NCBI RefSeq assembly: GCF_041248615.1
Contig: NZ_CP158426.1
Strand: one strand, 5' to 3'
DNA length: 64,000 nt
Source: Escherichia coli
Lineage (GTDB): Bacteria; Pseudomonadota; Gammaproteobacteria; Enterobacterales; Enterobacteriaceae
Shown here: piece by piece, positions 10,172 through 63,978 of the stretch
How positions within the stretch are numbered: position 1 is the stretch's first letter
Layout of the letters: each line of letters opens with the position of its first letter
The notes under the pieces: generated by a model
Database searches by the model: none
Seen by the model: only the letters and a program-made list of their open reading frames with translations
Told to the model about the DNA's origin: nothing
Translations under genes and position numbers: made by a program

Positions 10172-13100
10172 ATGCAGGTCAGCAGAAGGCAGTTCTTTAA
10201 GATCTGCGCTGGCGGTATGGCAGGCACCACGGCAGCGGCACTGGGTTTTGCACCCAGCGTAGCACTCGCGGAAACCCGGCAGTATAAACTGCTGCGCACC
10301 CGCGAAACCCGTAATACCTGCACCTATTGTTCCGTAGGCTGTGGGCTGTTGATGTACAGCCTCGGTGACGGAGCAAAAAACGCCAAAGCATCTATCTTCC
10401 ATATCGAAGGCGATCCGGATCACCCGGTCAACCGCGGTGCACTTTGTCCGAAAGGCGCTGGCCTGGTGGATTTCATCCACTCCGAAAGCCGTCTGAAGTT
10501 TCCGGAATACCGTGCGCCAGGTTCTGATAAATGGCAGCAAATCAGTTGGGAAGAGGCGTTTGATCGCATCGCCAAACTGATGAAAGAAGACCGCGATGCT
10601 AACTACATTGCGCAAAACGCCGAAGGCGTGACTGTTAACCGCTGGCTCTCCACCGGGATGCTGTGTGCTTCCGCGTCGAGTAACGAAACCGGCTATTTAA
10701 CGCAAAAATTCTCCCGCGCGCTGGGTATGCTCGCGGTCGACAACCAGGCGCGTGTCTGACACGGACCAACGGTAGCAAGTCTTGCTCCAACATTTGGTCG
10801 CGGTGCGATGACCAACCACTGGGTCGACATCAAGAACGCCAACCTCGTCGTGGTGATGGGCGGTAACGCCGCTGAAGCTCACCCGGTCGGGTTCCGCTGG
10901 GCGATGGAAGCCAAAATTCACAACGGCGCGAAGCTGATTGTGATCGATCCTCGCTTTACGCGTACGGCGGCGGTGGCTGACTACTATGCCCCTATTCGTT
11001 CCGGTACTGACATTGCTTTCCTGTCAGGCGTATTGCTGTACCTGCTGAACAATGAAAAATTCAACCGCGAATACACCGAAGCCTATACCAACGCCAGCCT
11101 TATCGTGCGTGAGGATTACGGCTTTGAAGATGGCCTGTTCACCGGCTACGACGCGGAAAAACGCAAGTACGATAAATCCTCCTGGACTTACGAACTGGAC
11201 GAAAACGGCTTCGCCAAACGCGATACCACGCTGCAACATCCGCGCTGCGTGTGGAACTTGCTGAAACAGCACGTTTCCCGCTACACGCCAGATGTGGTTG
11301 AAAACATCTGTGGTACGCCAAAAGACGCGTTCCTGAAAGTCTGCGAATACATCGCCGAAACCAGTGCTCACGATAAAACTGCCTCGTTCCTGTATGCCCT
11401 CGGCTGGACGCAACACTCTGTTGGTGCGCAAAACATTCGTACGATGGCGATGATCCAGCTGCTGCTCGGCAATATGGGGATGGCAGGCGGCGGCGTTAAC
11501 GCCCTGCGCGGTCACTCCAATATTCAGGGGCTGACGGACCTGGGGCTGCTGTCGCAGAGCCTGCCGGGTTACATGACGTTGCCGAGCGAGAAGCAGACCG
11601 ATCTGCAAACCTACCTTACAGCCAACACGCCAAAACCGCTGCTGGAAGGTCAGGTAAACTACTGGGGCAACTACCCGAAATTCTTCGTCTCCATGATGAA
11701 GGCCTTCTTTGGTGATAAAGCGACGGCGGAAAATAGCTGGGGCTTTGACTGGTTGCCGAAGTGGGATAAAGGCTACGACGTCCTGCAATACTTCGAGATG
11801 ATGAAAGAAGGCAAGGTCAATGGCTATATCTGCCAGGGCTTTAACCCTGTTGCCTCATTCCCGAACAAAAACAAAGTGATCGGTTGTCTGTCGAAACTGA
11901 AGTTCCTCGTCACCATCGACCCGCTGAACACTGAAACCTCTAACTTCTGGCAGAACCACGGTGAGCTGAACGAAGTTGACTCGTCGAAGATCCAGACCGA
12001 AGTGTTCCGTCTGCCATCGACCTGCTTCGCGGAAGAGAACGGTTCTATCGTTAACTCCGGTCGCTGGTTGCAGTGGCACTGGAAAGGTGCGGACGCCCCG
12101 GGGATTGCGCTGACTGATGGCGAGATCCTCTCCGGTATCTTCCTGCGCTTGCGCAAGATGTATGCCGAACAGGGTGGCGCGAACCCGGACCAGGTGCTGA
12201 ACATGACCTGGAACTACGCCATCCCGCATGAGCCGAAGTCGGAAGAAGTGGCGATGGAGAGCAACGGTAAGGCGCTGGCCGATATTACCGATCCGGCAAC
12301 CGGGGCGGTTATCGTCAAGAAAGGCCAACAACTTAGCTCGTTCGCCCAACTGCGCGATGACGGTACCACCTCCTGTGGCTGCTGGATTTTCGCCGGTAGC
12401 TGGACGCCAGAGGGCAACCAGATGGCACGCCGTGATAACGCCGATCCGTCTGGCCTCGGTAACACGCTGGGCTGGGCATGGGCATGGCCGCTTAACCGCC
12501 GCATTCTGTATAACCGCGCCTCCGCAGATCCGCAGGGTAACCCGTGGGATCCGAAGCGTCAGTTGCTGAAATGGGACGGCACCAAATGGACCGGCTGGGA
12601 TATTCCGGACTACAGCGCAGCACCTCCGGGCAGTGGCGTCGGGCCGTTTATCATGCAGCAGGAAGGCATGGGACGTCTGTTTGCCCTTGATAAGATGGCG
12701 GAAGGTCCGTTCCCGGAACACTACGAGCCGTTTGAAACGCCGCTGGGAACTAACCCGCTGCATCCAAACGTTATCTCGAACCCGGCTGCGCGTATCTTTA
12801 AAGACGACGCCGAAGCGTTGGGTAAAGCCGATAAGTTCCCGTATGTCGGAACCACCTATCGTCTGACCGAGCACTTCCACTACTGGACCAAACACGCGCT
12901 GTTGAACGCGATTTTGCAACCAGAGCAGTTTGTGGAAATCGGGGAGTCGCTGGCGAATAAACTTGGCATTGCCCAGGGCGATACCGTGAAAGTCTCCTCC
13001 AACCGTGGCTATATCAAAGCCAAAGCGGTGGTGACCAAACGTATTCGCACGCTGAAAGCGAACGGCAAAGATATCGATACCATCGGTATTCCGATTCACT

Positions 13101-39676: not shown

Positions 39677-39845
39677 TGTTTAATCCTTTTGGTTTAAACC
39701 AGATGAAGCATCTTACGCTTACGCCAAAAAAGAAAGCAATTAACGGTGTATGACTTTGCAGATAATTGTGACAAAGCTCTCTATTGACGTAATCACAGAC
39801 TTATAAGGGAGATACTCGCATTGGTGTGCGCTCACGACAGGTAAA

Positions 39846-39878
39846 AAAAAACCTGCCAGCGATGGCAGGTTTTTTATA
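39846..39878 (-). terminator. Rho-independent terminator downstream of typA (bidirectional hairpin)
   Basis: aaaaaaaaacctgccagcgatggcaggttttttat: GC stem flanked by A-run and T-run, 15 bp past the typA stop. Confidence 0.75.
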
Positions 39879-39892
39879 ACTAAAAAACGAAA

Positions 39893-41716
39893 TTAATCGT
39901 CTTTCGGTGCGCGGTTGGCGCGACGACGATCGTTTTCCGTCAGGTGACGTTTACGAATACGGATAGAGGTCGGAGTCACTTCTACCAGTTCGTCATCATC
40001 GATGAACTCCAGAGCTTGTTCCAGAGTCATGCGGATAGGCGGAACCAGAACAACGGCTTCGTCAGTACCGGAAGCACGCATGTTGGTCAGTTTCTTACCG
40101 GTCAGGCAGTTTACAGTCAGGTCGTTAGAGCGGCTATGAATACCGATAATCTGACCTTCGTAAACTTCTGCACCGTGACCGAGGAACAGCTTACCGCGAT
40201 CCTGCAGACCGAACAGCGCGAACGCTACCGCTTTACCCTGACCGTTAGAGATCAGTACGCCGTTCTGACGCTGACCCACTTCACCCGGACGTACGTCGTC
40301 GTAGTGGCTGAAGGTGGAGTACAGCAGACCCGTACCAGAAGTCATGGTCATGAACTCAGAACGGAAGCCAATCAGACCACGGCTTGGGATCACGTAGTCG
40401 AGACGTACGCGGCCTTTACCGTCTGGATTCATGTTTTTCAGGTCGCCTTTACGTTCGCCCAGCGCCTGCATCACAGAACCCTGATGCTGTTCTTCAACGT
40501 CCAGCGTCACGTTTTCATACGGCTCTTGTTTACGACCGTCGATTTCACGGAAGATTACTTTCGGACGGGATACCGCCAGTTCGAAACCTTCACGACGCAT
40601 GTTTTCGATAAGAACAGACAGGTGCAGTTCGCCACGACCAGAAACGCGGAACGCATCGGCGTCTTCGGTTTCTTCTACGCGCAGCGCAACGTTGTGTACC
40701 AGTTCTTTGTTCAGACGATCCAGGATCTGACGAGACGTTACGAACTTACCTTCTTTACCGCAGAACGGCGAGGTGTTAACGCAAAAGAACATAGAAACGG
40801 TCGGCTCATCAACGGAGAGTGCCGGCAGCGCTTCAACGTTTTGCGTGTCGCAAACGGTGTCAGAAATGTTCAGTTCGCCCAGGCCCGTGATCGCCACGAT
40901 ATCGCCAGCTTCCGCCAGATCGGTTTCAATACGTTCCAGACCGAGGTGGCCCAGCACTTTACCGACTTTCGCGTTACGGGTTTTGCCTTCGCTATCGATG
41001 ATAGTGACCTGCTGGTTCGGCTTCACTTTACCGCGCTTGATGCGGCCAATGCCGATAACGCCAACATAGCTGTTGTAATCGAGCTGAGAAATCTGCATCT
41101 GGAACGGACCGTCAAGGTCAACGTCCGGCGCAGGAACGTGGTCAACAATCGCCTGATACAGCGGGGTCATGTCTTCCGCCATATCTTCGTGGTCCAGACC
41201 CGCGATACCGTTCAGCGCAGAAGCGTAAACGATCGGGAAGTCCAGCTGCTCGTCGGTCGCGTCGAGGTTAACGAACAGATCGAATACCTGATCCACAACC
41301 CAATCAGGACGCGCGCCAGGGCGGTCAACTTTGTTGATAACAACAATCGGCTTCAGGCCGTAAGCAAACGCTTTTTTGGTTACGAAGCGCGTTTGCGGCA
41401 TCGGGCCGTCAAATGCGTCAACCACCAGCAGCACTGAGTCTACCATGGACATTACACGTTCAACTTCACCACCGAAGTCGGCGTGCCCCGGGGTATCAAC
41501 GATGTTGATACGGTAATCATTCCATTTGATAGCGGTGTTTTTCGCGAGGATGGTAATCCCACGCTCTTTCTCCAAATCGTTGGAGTCCATCACGCGCTCT
41601 TGGGTTTCGGCACGAGAGTCGAACGTACCGGATTGTTGGAGCAGCTTGTCTACCAGGGTGGTTTTACCATGGTCTACGTGCGCGATGATGGCGATATTAC
41701 GCAATTTTTCGATCAC
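39893..41716 (-). CDS. typA: Ribosome-associated translational GTPase TypA/BipA
   Basis: 607 aa [26 protein letters not shown]..., G-motifs AHVDHGKTT / DTPGHADF / NKVD; divergent from glnA. Confidence 0.95.
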
Positions 41717-41864
41717 AACTTTGCCTCAGGCATTAGAAATAGCGCGTTATTGTACACGGATTAATCGCACTACAAAACAGGATCACAAACATCCTCCGCA
41801 AACAAGTATTGCAGAGTCCCTTTGTGATCGCTTTCACGGAGCATAAAAAGGGTTATCCAAAGGT

Positions 41865-42010
41865 CATTGCACCAATATGGTGCTTAATGTTTCCATTGAA
41901 GCACTATATTGGTGCAACATTCACATCATGGTGCAGCCCTTTTGCACGATGTTAAGCATGATAACGCCTTTTAGGGGCAATTTAAAAGTTGGCACAGTTT
42001 TCGCTTTATC
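41865..42010 (+). promoter_or_regulatory. glnA control region: NtrC binding sites and sigma-54 promoter glnAp2
   Basis: Dyad sites tgcaccaatatggtgc (about 41868-41883) and gcactatattggtgca (about 41901-41916); sigma-54 -24/-12 element TTGGCACagtttTCGCT at about 41989-42005, about 85 bp upstream of the glnA ATG. Confidence 0.8.
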
Positions 42011-44732: not shown

Positions 44733-46142
44733 ATGCAACGAGGGATAGTCTGGGTAGTCGATGACGATAGTTCCATCCGTTGGGTGCTTGAACGTGCGCT
44801 CGCTGGAGCGGGTTTAACCTGTACGACATTTGAGAACGGCGCGGAGGTACTGGAGGCGCTGGCGAGCAAAACGCCGGATGTGCTGCTTTCAGATATCCGT
44901 ATGCCGGGAATGGACGGGCTGGCGCTGCTCAAGCAGATTAAACAGCGCCATCCGATGCTTCCGGTCATCATTATGACCGCACATTCCGATCTGGATGCTG
45001 CCGTCAGCGCCTATCAACAAGGGGCGTTTGATTATCTGCCCAAACCGTTTGATATCGACGAAGCCGTGGCGCTGGTTGAGCGCGCCATCAGCCATTATCA
45101 GGAACAGCAGCAGCCGCGTAATGTTCAGCTTAACGGCCCAACGACCGATATCATCGGCGAAGCGCCAGCCATGCAGGACGTGTTCCGTATTATCGGTCGG
45201 CTTTCGCGTTCTTCTATTAGCGTGCTGATTAACGGCGAATCCGGCACCGGTAAAGAACTGGTCGCTCATGCCCTGCATCGCCACAGTCCGAGAGCCAAAG
45301 CGCCATTTATCGCGCTGAATATGGCGGCTATCCCGAAGGATTTGATCGAATCAGAACTGTTTGGTCACGAGAAAGGCGCGTTTACCGGCGCGAATACCAT
45401 TCGTCAGGGGCGTTTTGAACAGGCCGATGGCGGCACGTTATTTCTCGACGAAATTGGTGATATGCCGCTGGATGTGCAGACGCGTTTGCTGCGCGTGCTG
45501 GCAGACGGTCAGTTTTATCGCGTTGGCGGCTATGCGCCGGTGAAAGTGGATGTGCGGATTATCGCTGCCACTCACCAGAATCTTGAACAGCGGGTGCAGG
45601 AAGGTAAGTTCCGTGAGGATCTGTTCCACCGCCTGAACGTCATCCGCGTTCATCTGCCACCACTGCGTGAGCGTCGGGAAGATATTCCCCGCCTGGCACG
45701 CCATTTTTTACAGGTTGCCGCGCGCGAACTGGGCGTAGAAGCGAAGTTACTGCATCCGGAAACCGAAGCCGCGCTGACGCGTCTGGCGTGGCCAGGCAAC
45801 GTGCGCCAGCTGGAAAACACCTGCCGCTGGCTAACGGTAATGGCTGCCGGACAGGAAGTGTTGATTCAGGATTTGCCTGGCGAACTGTTTGAATCAACGG
45901 TTGCGGAGAGTACTTCGCAAATGCAACCGGACAGTTGGGCGACGCTGTTAGCGCAGTGGGCAGACAGAGCGCTGCGTTCCGGTCATCAAAACCTGCTTTC
46001 CGAAGCGCAGCCTGAGCTGGAACGGACGTTACTGACCACCGCGCTGCGACATACGCAGGGGCATAAACAGGAAGCGGCGCGGCTACTCGGCTGGGGGCGT
46101 AACACTCTGACGCGGAAGTTAAAAGAGCTGGGGATGGAGTGA
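44733..46142 (+). CDS. glnG: Sigma-54-dependent response regulator NtrC
   Basis: 469 aa from [23 protein letters not shown] (receiver), AAA+ sigma-54 activator domain ([14 protein letters not shown]) and C-terminal HTH; track ORF starts 20 codons upstream inside glnL. Confidence 0.95.
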
Positions 46143-46253
46143 TTCACGGCTTGAGTGTAAAGATTGATTATTGAGCGCAAATTGCTGGTATTTTGCGCTT
46201 TACTGTTCCGATAAGTTCAGTATGATCTTGCCCGGAAAACGGGGAGAGTCATT

Positions 46254-46364
46254 ATGCTGGAATCAATAATTAATCTGGTATCGAGTGGCGCAGTTGACAG
46301 CCACACACCGCAAACTGCCGTTGCTGCCGTGCTGTGTGCCGCAATGATTGGGCTGTTTAGTTGA
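46254..46364 (+). CDS. yshB: Small membrane protein YshB (36 aa)
   Basis: ATG with GGGGAGAG ribosome-binding site 7 nt upstream; MLESIINLVSSGAVDSHTPQTAVAAVLCAAMIGLFS; below the length cut-off of the ORF track; position between glnG and hemN. Confidence 0.6.
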   Translation: MLESIINLVSSGAVDSHTPQTAVAAVLCAAMIGLFS

Positions 46365-46387
46365 GTTTCAGATTGCTGATGAAGTGC

Positions 46388-46475
46388 TCTTTGTTCATGC
46401 CGGATGCGGCGTGAACGCCTTATCCGGTCTACAAAAGCAATATTTTCAACAGGTTTTGTAGGCCTGATAAGCGTA
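46388..46475. repeat. REP elements between yshB and hemN
   Basis: gccggatgcggcgtgaacgccttatccggtctac and partner gtaggcctgataagcgtagcgcatcaggc. Confidence 0.7.
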
Positions 46476-46553
46476 GCGCATCAGGCAATCTTGTTCTCAG
46501 CACATTGATGGCGCTTTCGTTTTCTACTTTGTAAACGAAGCGCCATTCACTAT

Positions 46554-47927
46554 TTAAATCACCCGAGAGAACTGCTGCATCCGCGCTTTCTGGCGCAGAT
46601 AGGTATCAAAGCACATGCAAATGTTGCGGATCAGCAAGCGACCTTTCGCCGTCACCTGAATCCCCTTCTCATCCACATCCACCAGCCCATCTTTTGCTAA
46701 CGGGGCGAGCAGCTTGAGATCTTCCGCAAAGTAATCAGCGAAGTGCAAATCCCACTGTTGCTCAATGGGAGCGTAATCCAGACGGAAGTTGCAGATGAGC
46801 GACTTAATCACATCGCGGCGAATACAGTCATCACGCGTTAGCGCAATACCACGCCACAGCGCATTGCCTTGTTCATCCACTTGCTGATAGTAGTGCTTCA
46901 ACTCTTTCTGGTTCTGCGCATAGCAGTCGCCAATCATACTGATGGCGGAAACGCCCATCCCCAGCAGATCGGTATCGCCCTGAGTGGTGTAGCCCTGGAA
47001 GTTACGGTGCAGCACGCCTTCACGCTGGGCCACCGCCAGCTCGTCATCCGGACGGGCAAAGTGATCCATACCGATAAACTGATAGCCCGATTGCGTCAGG
47101 AAGGCGATGGTTTCCTGCAGGATATCGAGTTTTTGCTGCGGACTCGGCAGGTCAGCATCTTTGATTTTGCGCTGAGCAGCAAAAATGGTCGGCAGATGCG
47201 CATAGTTAAAGACGCTCAGACGATCGGGGTTCAGCTCCGCCACGCGTTTCAGGGTAAAAGCGAAACTCTCCGGCGTCTGTTTCGGCAGGCCGTAAATCAG
47301 GTCGATGTTGGTGGAGGTAAAACCAATCTCACGCGCATGGTTAAGCAGTGCAAAGATGAACTCTTCATCCTGCTCGCGGTTAACCAGACGTTGCACTTCT
47401 TTGTTGAAGTCCTGCACGCCCATGCTCAGGCGATTAAAGCCCTCGGCGCGTAAATGATCGAGTACATCCAGTTCGATTTCGCGCGGATCGACTTCGATCG
47501 AAATCTCCGCATCGGCATTGAACTGGAAGTTTTCGCGCAGCAGCTTCATCAGGCGGCTGATTTGCGCTTTGTTCAGATACGTCGGCGTACCACCGCCCCA
47601 GTGCAGCTGGCTCACCTTGCGCCCGGCAAAAAGCGGTGCACGATGGACGATTTCTTGCTCCAGCGCGTCCAGATACTGATCGGCCTTGTGCTGCTGGCGA
47701 GTAACAATCTTATTGCAACCGCAGAAGTAACAAAGCTTATGGCAGAACGGGATATGTACGTAGAGAGATAATGGACGCTCAGGATAGCGCGCCACGGCTT
47801 GTAAAAACGCCTGTTCGCCGAAGTCTTCTGAAAACTCCAGCGCGGTCGGGTACGAGGTGTATCGTGGCCCGGAATAGTTATATTTCTGGATCAGGGCCAG
47901 ATCCCAGTCGATTTGCTGTACAGACAT
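46554..47927 (-). CDS. hemN: Oxygen-independent coproporphyrinogen III oxidase (radical SAM)
   Basis: 457 aa from MSVQQIDWDLALIQKYNYSGPRYTSYPTALEF; radical-SAM Cys motif CHKLCYFCGC. Confidence 0.95.
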   Translation of the reverse strand: MSVQQIDWDLALIQKYNYSGPRYTSYPTALEFSEDFGEQAFLQAVARYPERPLSLYVHIPFCHKLCYFCGCNKIVTRQQHKADQYLDALEQEIVHRAPLFAGRKVSQLHWGGGTPTYLNKAQISRLMKLLRENFQFNADAEISIEVDPREIELDVLDHLRAEGFNRLSMGVQDFNKEVQRLVNREQDEEFIFALLNHAREIGFTSTNIDLIYGLPKQTPESFAFTLKRVAELNPDRLSVFNYAHLPTIFAAQRKIKDADLPSPQQKLDILQETIAFLTQSGYQFIGMDHFARPDDELAVAQREGVLHRNFQGYTTQGDTDLLGMGVSAISMIGDCYAQNQKELKHYYQQVDEQGNALWRGIALTRDDCIRRDVIKSLICNFRLDYAPIEQQWDLHFADYFAEDLKLLAPLAKDGLVDVDEKGIQVTAKGRLLIRNICMCFDTYLRQKARMQQFSRVI

Positions 47928-48115
47928 GCTCACTCCTTCCGATGGCGTCTCTGGCGGCTACGGCGTACCGGCGGATGCCCGTTTCGGGTCATCAGCCGGT
48001 TGCGCAGCCACTTTTGTCGCCGCGACAACCGCTGTAGTTTAACGAATAACCACACCAGATAACATATAACCGGAAGGGTTATCAGCAGAACGGGAAGGCC
48101 CACGGCGGCAATCCG

Positions 48116-48625: not shown

Positions 48626-48691
48626 AATGGTTCGTCTTTTAGCCGTTTTATTCAGTATAGATTTGCGGCGGAATCTAACAGAAAGCAAGCA

Positions 48692-48936
48692 AAGAAAAAA
48701 GGCGACAGATTACTCTGTCGCCTTTTTTCCTGACTCATAACCCTTAACGGGTCTTACAATCCTTGCAGGCCGCCAACACACCCTGTTTTTCCATTAGCCG
48801 GAACAATCCGTGTTGATTCCATTTCCGTTTAATTACGTCTCCGGACGTTTGTCTTCCTGACAATCCTCTGTCTTCGCCTCCTGGCGCTCCTGACCCTCAT
48901 CCTGAGTCATTGTTCCTGTTAGCGTCCTCGCTCTAT
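48692..48936 (-). ncRNA. csrC: CsrC small RNA (CsrA-sequestering)
   Basis: Minus-strand sequence begins ATAGAGCGAGGACGCTAACAGGAACAATGACTCAGGATGAGGGTCAGGAGCG..., carries many AGGA/GGA motifs, and ends in the hairpin GGCGACAGAGTAATCTGTCGCC plus T-run; matches the CsrC sequence as I remember it; located between yihI and engB. Confidence 0.85.
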
Positions 48937-49961: not shown

Positions 49962-50073
49962 CAATAAAAAACGCCCCAGTCATTACTGACTGGGGCGGCT
50001 AAAATATTCAGCCAAATCCGATTACGTGAAGTAAAAGGTCTGAAAGATAGAACATCTTACCTCTGTACCCTAC
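49962..50073 (-). ncRNA. spf: Spot 42 small RNA
   Basis: Minus-strand sequence GTAGGGTACAGAGGTAAGATGTTCTATCTTTCAGACCTTTTACTTCACGTAATCGGATTTGGCTGAATATTTTAGCCGCCCCAGTCAGTAATGACTGGGGCGTTTTTTATTGG matches Spot 42 as I recall it, including the terminal hairpin and U-run; lies downstream of polA. Confidence 0.9.
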
Positions 50074-50220
50074 GCGACTAACTTTACTCTTTTTTGTTCA
50101 GTTCAGAAAGCATTTTTTGTAATTTTTTTTCAGTTGTTGCATAGGAATTTCTAATAGCCATCACAAAACGTGACAGCTTATGTTGCTTACTTACGAAAAA
50201 AGGGCATGTTCAGGCGAATC

Positions 50221-60601: not shown

Positions 60602-60721
60602 ATGCCTGGCAGTTCCCTACTCTCGCATGGGGAGACCCCACACTACCATCGGCGCTACGGCGTTTCACTTCTGAGTTCGGCATGGGGTCAGGTGGGACCA
60701 CCGCGCTAAGGCCGCCAGGCA
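60602..60721 (-). rRNA. rrf: 5S ribosomal RNA
   Basis: Reverse complement reads TGCCTGGCGGCCTTAGCGCGGTGGTCCCACCTGACCCCATGCCGAACTCAGAAGTGAAACGCCGTAGCGCCGATGGTAGTGTGGGGTCTCCCCATGCGAGAGTAGGGAACTGCCAGGCAT (120 nt). Confidence 0.97.
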
Positions 60722-60814
60722 AATTCTGTTTTATCAGACCGCTTCTGCGTTCTGATTTAATCTGTATCAGGCTGAAAATCTTTCTCTCATCCGCCAAAAC
60801 ATCTTCGGCGTTGT

Positions 60815-63719
<2,905 letters not shown>

Positions 63720-63902
63720 TCACAACCCGAAGATGTTTCTTTCGATTCATCATCGTGTTGCGAAAATTTGAGAGACTCACGAACAACTTTCATTGTTCAG
63801 TGTTTCAATTTTCAGCTTGATCCAGATTTTTAAAGAGCAAAACTTCGCAGTGAACCTTTGCAGGTACACTCTGAAGTATTTTTTATTTAATCACTACAGA
63901 GA

Positions 63903-63978
63903 TGGTGGAGCTATGCGGGATCGAACCGCAGACCTCCTGCGTGCAAAGCAGGCGCTCTCCCAGCTGAGCTATAGCCCC
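63903..63978 (-). tRNA. alaT: tRNA-Ala (anticodon UGC), in the 16S-23S spacer
   Basis: Reverse complement GGGGCTATAGCTCAGCTGGGAGAGCGCCTGCTTTGCACGCAGGAGGTCTGCGGTTCGATCCCGCATAGCTCCACCA; G3:U70 wobble pair in the acceptor stem and TGC anticodon. The specific rrn operon (rrnA by synteny with mobB) is inferred. Confidence 0.93.

Follow-up and report, generated by a model that had tools for sequence, protein, structure and literature searches.

The 36-codon open reading frame (ORF) between glnG and hemN in the analysed 64,000-nt stretch of Escherichia coli DNA (referred to here as the window) is almost certainly yshB, a known, independently transcribed gene that encodes a 36-residue inner-membrane protein of the Enterobacteriaceae and Erwiniaceae. 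The gene has already been described and annotated, and its occurrence in the window is ordinary. Three other readings of the locus were weighed, namely a chance frame, a small regulatory RNA, and a terminal gene in the glnALG operon; each is taken up below with the evidence that bears on it.

Identity of the ORF between glnG and hemN

The ORF occupies positions 46254-46364 on the plus strand (111 nt). It begins with the ATG at 46254 and ends, after 36 codons, with a TGA whose last base is 46364. The predicted product is MLESIINLVSSGAVDSHTPQTAVAAVLCAAMIGLFS. An initial annotation of this DNA had described an ATG-started ORF of 36 codons at these positions, lying between glnG and hemN, preceded by a ribosome-binding site, and encoding a hydrophobic C-terminal segment. 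Its coordinates and description agree with the sequence. The flanking stop codons are those of glnG (46142, plus strand) and hemN (46554, minus strand), the quoted hydrophobic segment AVAAVLCAAMIGLFS is found in the 36-residue product, and the ribosome-binding site GGGGAGAG is found at 46241-46248. The neighboring hemN ORF (46554-47933, minus strand), as called mechanically, begins at a GTG and comprises 459 codons for amino acids. In reference annotations the gene measures 1374 nt (457 aa), so translation of hemN probably begins at the ATG that lies two codons inside the mechanical ORF.

The same annotation had judged the ORF to be consistent with yshB, and this assignment was borne out. The window protein is identical at 36/36 residues to the annotated yshB product of the K-12 derivative TG1 (WP_000893994.1), and its exact sequence carries the name YSHB_ECOLI in UniRef. 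A search of NCBIfam returned a sole match, the equivalog model NF033841 (small_YshB), with a score of 72.1 bits against a curated cutoff of 34 (E = 2.4e-20); the match spans residues 1-36 of the protein and positions 1-40 of the 40-position profile. The family signature of NF033841, M-x-E ... H-T-P-Q-T-A ... C-A ... F-S, is complete in the window protein. Thus, similarity to K-12 YshB (b4686; YSHB_ECOLI; WP_000893994.1; NF033841; PF28018), the lack of which had been named as evidence against the assignment, is 100%. In our local copy of Pfam-A, no family was matched by the window protein, even at E <= 1; PF28018:YshB is entered in the precomputed tables for the orthologues from Salmonella, the Erwiniaceae, and a Klebsiella-type locus.

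The surroundings of the ORF lead to the same name. When a 501-nt query around the ORF was compared with complete E. coli genomes, the matched feature was annotated "yshB: YshB family small membrane protein" and was flanked by glnG and hemN. The product in a strain that is 100% identical across the 501 nt bears the same accession, WP_000893994.1. K-12 yshB and the ORF in the window have in common the upstream glnG, the convergent downstream hemN, the start codon, the Shine-Dalgarno sequence, and the promoter-like site, and they differ by a single synonymous change (AGT/AGC) in the final sense codon.

The length of the ORF by itself does not exceed chance. ATG-started ORFs of 30-50 aa number 181 in the window when both strands are counted, and the case for a gene therefore rests on comparison across genomes. 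Just 6 of these 181 ORFs have a Shine-Dalgarno-like motif 5-10 nt upstream. The abundance of short ORFs, together with the lack of a match in the local Pfam-A copy, is what might be expected if the ORF were a chance, untranslated frame in the glnG-hemN intergenic region. Against this stand the complete identity of the product to a named, annotated protein and its passing of the NCBIfam equivalog model, as well as the conservation described next.

Conservation of the reading frame and selection on the protein

Of 5426 complete E. coli genomes, 5425 had the 111-nt ORF in a single copy. Nucleotide identity was at least 90% for every match, and the yshB annotation was present in all sampled rows of the genome matches. 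One of the 5426 genomes gave no yshB match, and 2 of the 5425 matches were on records labelled as plasmids. The most divergent allele among the matches listed (93.7% identity, 7 nucleotide differences) encodes a protein with the identical accession, as does another allele with 96.4% identity; all of the nucleotide differences in these two alleles are therefore synonymous.

A similar pattern was seen across genera. YshB of Salmonella enterica has the same length as the window protein and is identical to it at 33/36 residues (92%), the three conservative substitutions (V23L, M31L, and I32V) all falling in the hydrophobic helix. At the nucleotide level, 18 of the 36 codons differ, 15 of them synonymously and 3 by conservative nonsynonymous changes, and the changes are distributed over the first, second, and third codon positions as 5, 0, and 16. 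Such a pattern indicates that the yshB reading frame is under purifying selection on the protein. Loss of the frame in other strains had been named, too, as evidence against the assignment; instead, the frame was found in 5425 of 5426 genomes with mostly synonymous changes, and it is also kept in Salmonella, Klebsiella, Enterobacter, and the Erwiniaceae. Judged from these comparisons, conservation across strains and genera raises the ORF above chance. The predominance of synonymous changes relative to Salmonella, the 7 changes within E. coli that leave the protein unaltered, and the conservation of the frame, ATG, and Shine-Dalgarno sequence out to the Erwiniaceae all speak against a chance frame, as does the observation of intact YshB by top-down mass spectrometry (MS) reported in PMC12529367. 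On the strength of the codon-position pattern and the published detection of the protein, we rejected the chance-ORF reading, whose probability we consider negligible.

Only 15 clusters were obtained at E <= 0.001 when 1.84 billion representative proteins were searched. The taxonomic range was read from the source names in the cluster tables, according to which the true members come from Escherichia/Shigella, Salmonella, Klebsiella, Enterobacter, and the Erwiniaceae. Among the representatives were frameshifted, truncated, or overextended gene calls (P0017 and P0020-P0023, and P0016 with an N-terminal extension). For the family alignment, which comprised 10 diverse members, such calls were left out or, in the case of P0016 and P0019, trimmed to the 36-residue core. 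M1, E3, H17, Q20, T21, A22, C28, A29, and F35 were invariant in this alignment, and all of them are present in the window protein; I5, S10, T18, P19, A25, L27, L34, and S36 were nearly invariant.

One of the faulty calls has a recognizable origin. P0022 (60 aa) joins the first 24 residues of YshB to the translation of an out-of-frame plus-strand ORF at 46348-46461 (37 aa), which suggests that some genome carries an allele with a deletion or a frameshift, or else contains an assembly error. P0017, P0020, P0021, and P0023 are frameshifted calls that resemble it.

Promoter, RNA structures, and genomic context

The ribosome-binding site is a Shine-Dalgarno sequence, GGGGAGAG (46241-46248, plus strand), whose GGAG stops 7 nt short of the ATG. 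Its core (GGGG/GGGA) is aligned and conserved in Salmonella, in the Klebsiella-type locus L009, and in the Erwiniaceae loci. Further upstream, a promoter scan of positions 46050-46650 found a single sigma-70-type site, TTTACT-16 nt-TATGAT, at 46199-46226 on the plus strand. This site is identical to that of Salmonella at 27/28 positions. In the six aligned loci, which extend out to the Erwiniaceae, TTTAC and GTATnAT are invariant at a fixed spacing (6/6), and the yshB ATG is likewise aligned and invariant. The scan and the conservation make this site the probable yshB promoter, and according to PMC9731577, yshB is transcribed from a promoter of its own. Transcription would then start at about position 46233, leaving a 5' untranslated region of about 20 nt.

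An inverted-repeat search combined with folding of the strand identified the hairpins at the locus. One of them (46173-46200, plus strand; inverted repeat I4) has the form GAGCGCAAA-(10 nt)-UUUGCGCUC-like, with UUU after it; its folding energy is -11.4 kcal/mol (z = -2.07), and its arms are conserved in Salmonella. It is located between the glnG stop codon and the yshB -35 hexamer, which it abuts. A terminator scan of positions 46050-46650 found no canonical intrinsic terminator and did not call this hairpin. From its position and conservation, the hairpin is a plausible candidate for terminating the glnALG transcript or for forming the structure at its 3' end. Since it abuts the -35 hexamer, termination of glnALG and initiation of yshB may physically overlap.

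These elements bear on whether yshB could be the last cistron of glnALG and, as such, an accessory of NtrBC under nitrogen regulation. In Salmonella, in a Klebsiella-type metagenome contig, and in two Erwiniaceae genomes, the gene follows glnG on the same strand at a distance of about 100-110 nt, and K-12 yshB is also directly downstream of glnG on the same strand. The order glnL-glnG-yshB-hemN-yihI and the promoter hexamers are common to the window and Salmonella, and in the compared genomes, the convergent hemN followed by yihI is usually next after yshB. In Erwinia tracheiphila the following gene is not hemN, yet the link between glnG and yshB is retained. A spacing and orientation this constant would suit a glnALG cistron, but between glnG and yshB there are first a conserved hairpin and then a sigma-70-type promoter that is likewise conserved. 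The literature also contradicts such an arrangement, as PMC9731577 assigns yshB its own promoter and a published statement has it that the gene is not induced by nitrogen limitation, the opposite of what a nitrogen link would imply. We therefore regard membership in glnALG as very improbable and independent transcription of yshB as the better account.

There is a slim chance that the close association between yshB and the 3' end of glnLG, which is seen across the order, is functional rather than historical. Synteny and the conservation of noncoding DNA are the basis for supposing that YshB might be a membrane-embedded modulator tied to nitrogen/NtrBC physiology. The yshB promoter might also be governed by read-through or termination of glnALG through transcriptional interference, or, by analogy with the Pseudomonas small RNA (sRNA) NrsZ encoded after ntrBC, yshB might be a dual-function mRNA.

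The 100 nt upstream of the ATG (46154-46253) is 90% identical to Salmonella, compared with 81% for the coding sequence. Noncoding DNA more conserved than the adjacent coding sequence is one of several features that would suit a locus acting mainly as a small regulatory RNA, either alone or with a dual function in which the peptide is secondary. The transcript would be short (about 130-300 nt), with its own promoter and strong REP or hairpin structures at its end, and the Salmonella study of yshB reportedly arrived at the gene from an sRNA screen. In Pseudomonas, NrsZ occupies the corresponding position after ntrBC (PMC9731577). The conserved upstream block, however, consists mostly of promoter and hairpin DNA that precedes the likely transcription start, and the concentration of substitutions at third positions, with none at second positions, argues for selection on the protein rather than on RNA pairing. 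Moreover, with a threshold of E <= 1, an Rfam scan of positions 45800-46900 placed no family on the yshB coding sequence or on the leader. The sole match in that scan was downstream, a subthreshold match to naRNA4, which is REP derived, in the yshB 3' region. A primarily regulatory RNA is thus highly improbable and an RNA-only function is unlikely, although the transcript may have a dual role.

Rfam matches were obtained elsewhere in the window. Those to sRNAs at gathering level are CsrC (48683-48936), Spot 42 (49965-50083), and ES222 (41798-41905), all on the minus strand; an STnc370 match (39840-39908, minus strand) is barely above threshold, at 54.9 against 54 bits. A SECIS_3 selenocysteine insertion element lies at 10754-10812 on the plus strand (84.3 bits), and the end of the window (60604-63978, minus strand) is a segment of an rRNA operon with 5S, 23S, a StyR-44 match in the spacer, and a tRNA.

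Downstream of yshB, REP/BIME palindromic elements (46393-46480; inverted repeats I1 and I2) occupy the space before hemN and fold at -41 kcal/mol (z = -5.6). They are responsible for the many additional matching places obtained with the 501-nt query, the median being 39 per E. coli genome versus 1 for the ORF alone. The number of REP copies downstream of yshB depends on the strain: immediately after the yshB stop codon, K-12 TG1 carries about 50 nt of REP sequence beyond that of the window, and Salmonella has a shorter version. The REP/BIME elements are a probable 3' stabilizer or transcript end for yshB. A second structure, the strong hairpin ATGGCGCTTTCGTTT...AAACGAAGCGCCAT (46507-46547; inverted repeat I3), is located beside the hemN stop codon and folds at -20.5 kcal/mol (z = -5.1); it cannot be aligned in the Salmonella locus. 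Its position suggests that it is probably the hemN terminator, and it is possibly bidirectional, also ending yshB transcripts.

Protein architecture, published behavior, and a proposed mechanism

YshB contains no lysine or arginine and two acidic residues, and it has a GRAVY score of 1.12. The mean Kyte-Doolittle hydropathy in a 15-residue window climbs to 2.37 at the C terminus. An AlphaFold2 model of moderate confidence (10-sequence alignment, mean pLDDT of 70) contains helices at residues 2-14 and 19-34, broken at D15-T18. The N-terminal helix is amphipathic, with a hydrophobic moment of 0.37 that was attained by 2.9% of shuffled sequences. The second helix is apolar throughout; its hydrophobic stretch of about 16-18 residues, with an uninterrupted apolar run of about 16, is short for a membrane span. 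Between the helices, the model has a conserved polar hinge around SHTPQT (residues 16-21), with the invariant HTPQTA at the helix junction. On one face of the second helix, the invariant C28 and A29, the nearly invariant A25, and a mostly small residue at position 33 form an AxxxAxxxG-like pattern; small-xxx-small motifs of this kind can serve as helix-packing surfaces. With no lysine or arginine flanking the helix, the positive-inside rule gives no cue to topology. PMC10470546 reports that TMHMM and TOPCONS predict a single transmembrane segment for its set of small membrane proteins.

Published work indicates that YshB is made, and made in quantity. The protein lacks tryptic sites and is hence missed by bottom-up proteomics, according to PMC12529367, the study that detected it intact by top-down MS. 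Both PMC7549839 and PMC10502375 quote from Li et al. 2014 an estimate, derived from ribosome profiling, of more than 11,000 YshB copies per stationary-phase cell. Ribo-seq data had been proposed initially as a check on the ORF, and the estimate quoted in PMC7549839 provides that check through the literature. A C-terminally His-tagged YshB was undetectable in one study, as described in PMC7549839.

The turnover of the protein has also been described. In PMC10470546, N-terminally tagged YshB was a class I substrate of the intramembrane site-2 protease (S2P) RseP and was cleaved in all four assays; both plasmid-borne and chromosomal RseP cleaved it in vivo, and purified RseP cleaved it in vitro. 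Cleavage by such a protease is indirect evidence that YshB is associated with the membrane. The tagged protein was cut as well by periplasmic proteases. All of the RseP cleavage data in that study come from N-terminally tagged constructs, and its authors warn that tags can alter topology.

YshB can be compared with other single-pass small membrane proteins of E. coli that are summarized in PMC10470546 and act on larger ones: MgrB on PhoQ, Blr on the divisome, and CydX on cytochrome bd. Like YshB, these proteins belong to that size class, have one hydrophobic helix, are induced by stress or in stationary phase, and proved susceptible to RseP in the screen that included YshB. YshB has no sequence similarity to them and no known partner of its own. 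For Salmonella, Bomjan et al. [quoted passage not shown]

The predicted architecture and the published data can be accommodated by the following mechanism. Being too short for cotranslational targeting, YshB would insert into the membrane posttranslationally. Its C-terminal helix (about residues 19-36) is predicted to span the inner membrane, and the amphipathic N-terminal helix (residues 2-14) is predicted to stay on the cytoplasmic side, giving the N-in/C-out topology that RseP normally cleaves. A helix-packing surface would be made up of the invariant HTPQTA hinge, Cys28, and the small-residue face A25-xxx-A29-xxx-G33, and YshB may use it to bind and modulate a larger membrane protein, as MgrB and similar proteins do, or to oligomerize. 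The abundance of YshB would depend on the gene's own promoter, which would not be under nitrogen control, and on RseP-dependent degradation. The weak points of this mechanism are the short hydrophobic span, the lack of flanking positive charges, the moderate confidence of the AlphaFold2 model, the reliance of the RseP data on tagged constructs, and the lack of a known partner.

yshB is already represented in RefSeq, UniProt, NCBIfam, and Pfam, and the window gives nothing new on the mechanism of its product. The case illustrates that ORF tracks with a length threshold overlook real genes. As by-products, the analysis yields a conserved promoter and a compact list of invariant YshB residues, comprising the HTPQTA hinge, Cys28, and the AxxxAxxxG face. 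They belong to a protein of 36 residues that has no known molecular partner and yet is conserved, abundant, and, in Salmonella, reported to have a virulence phenotype.
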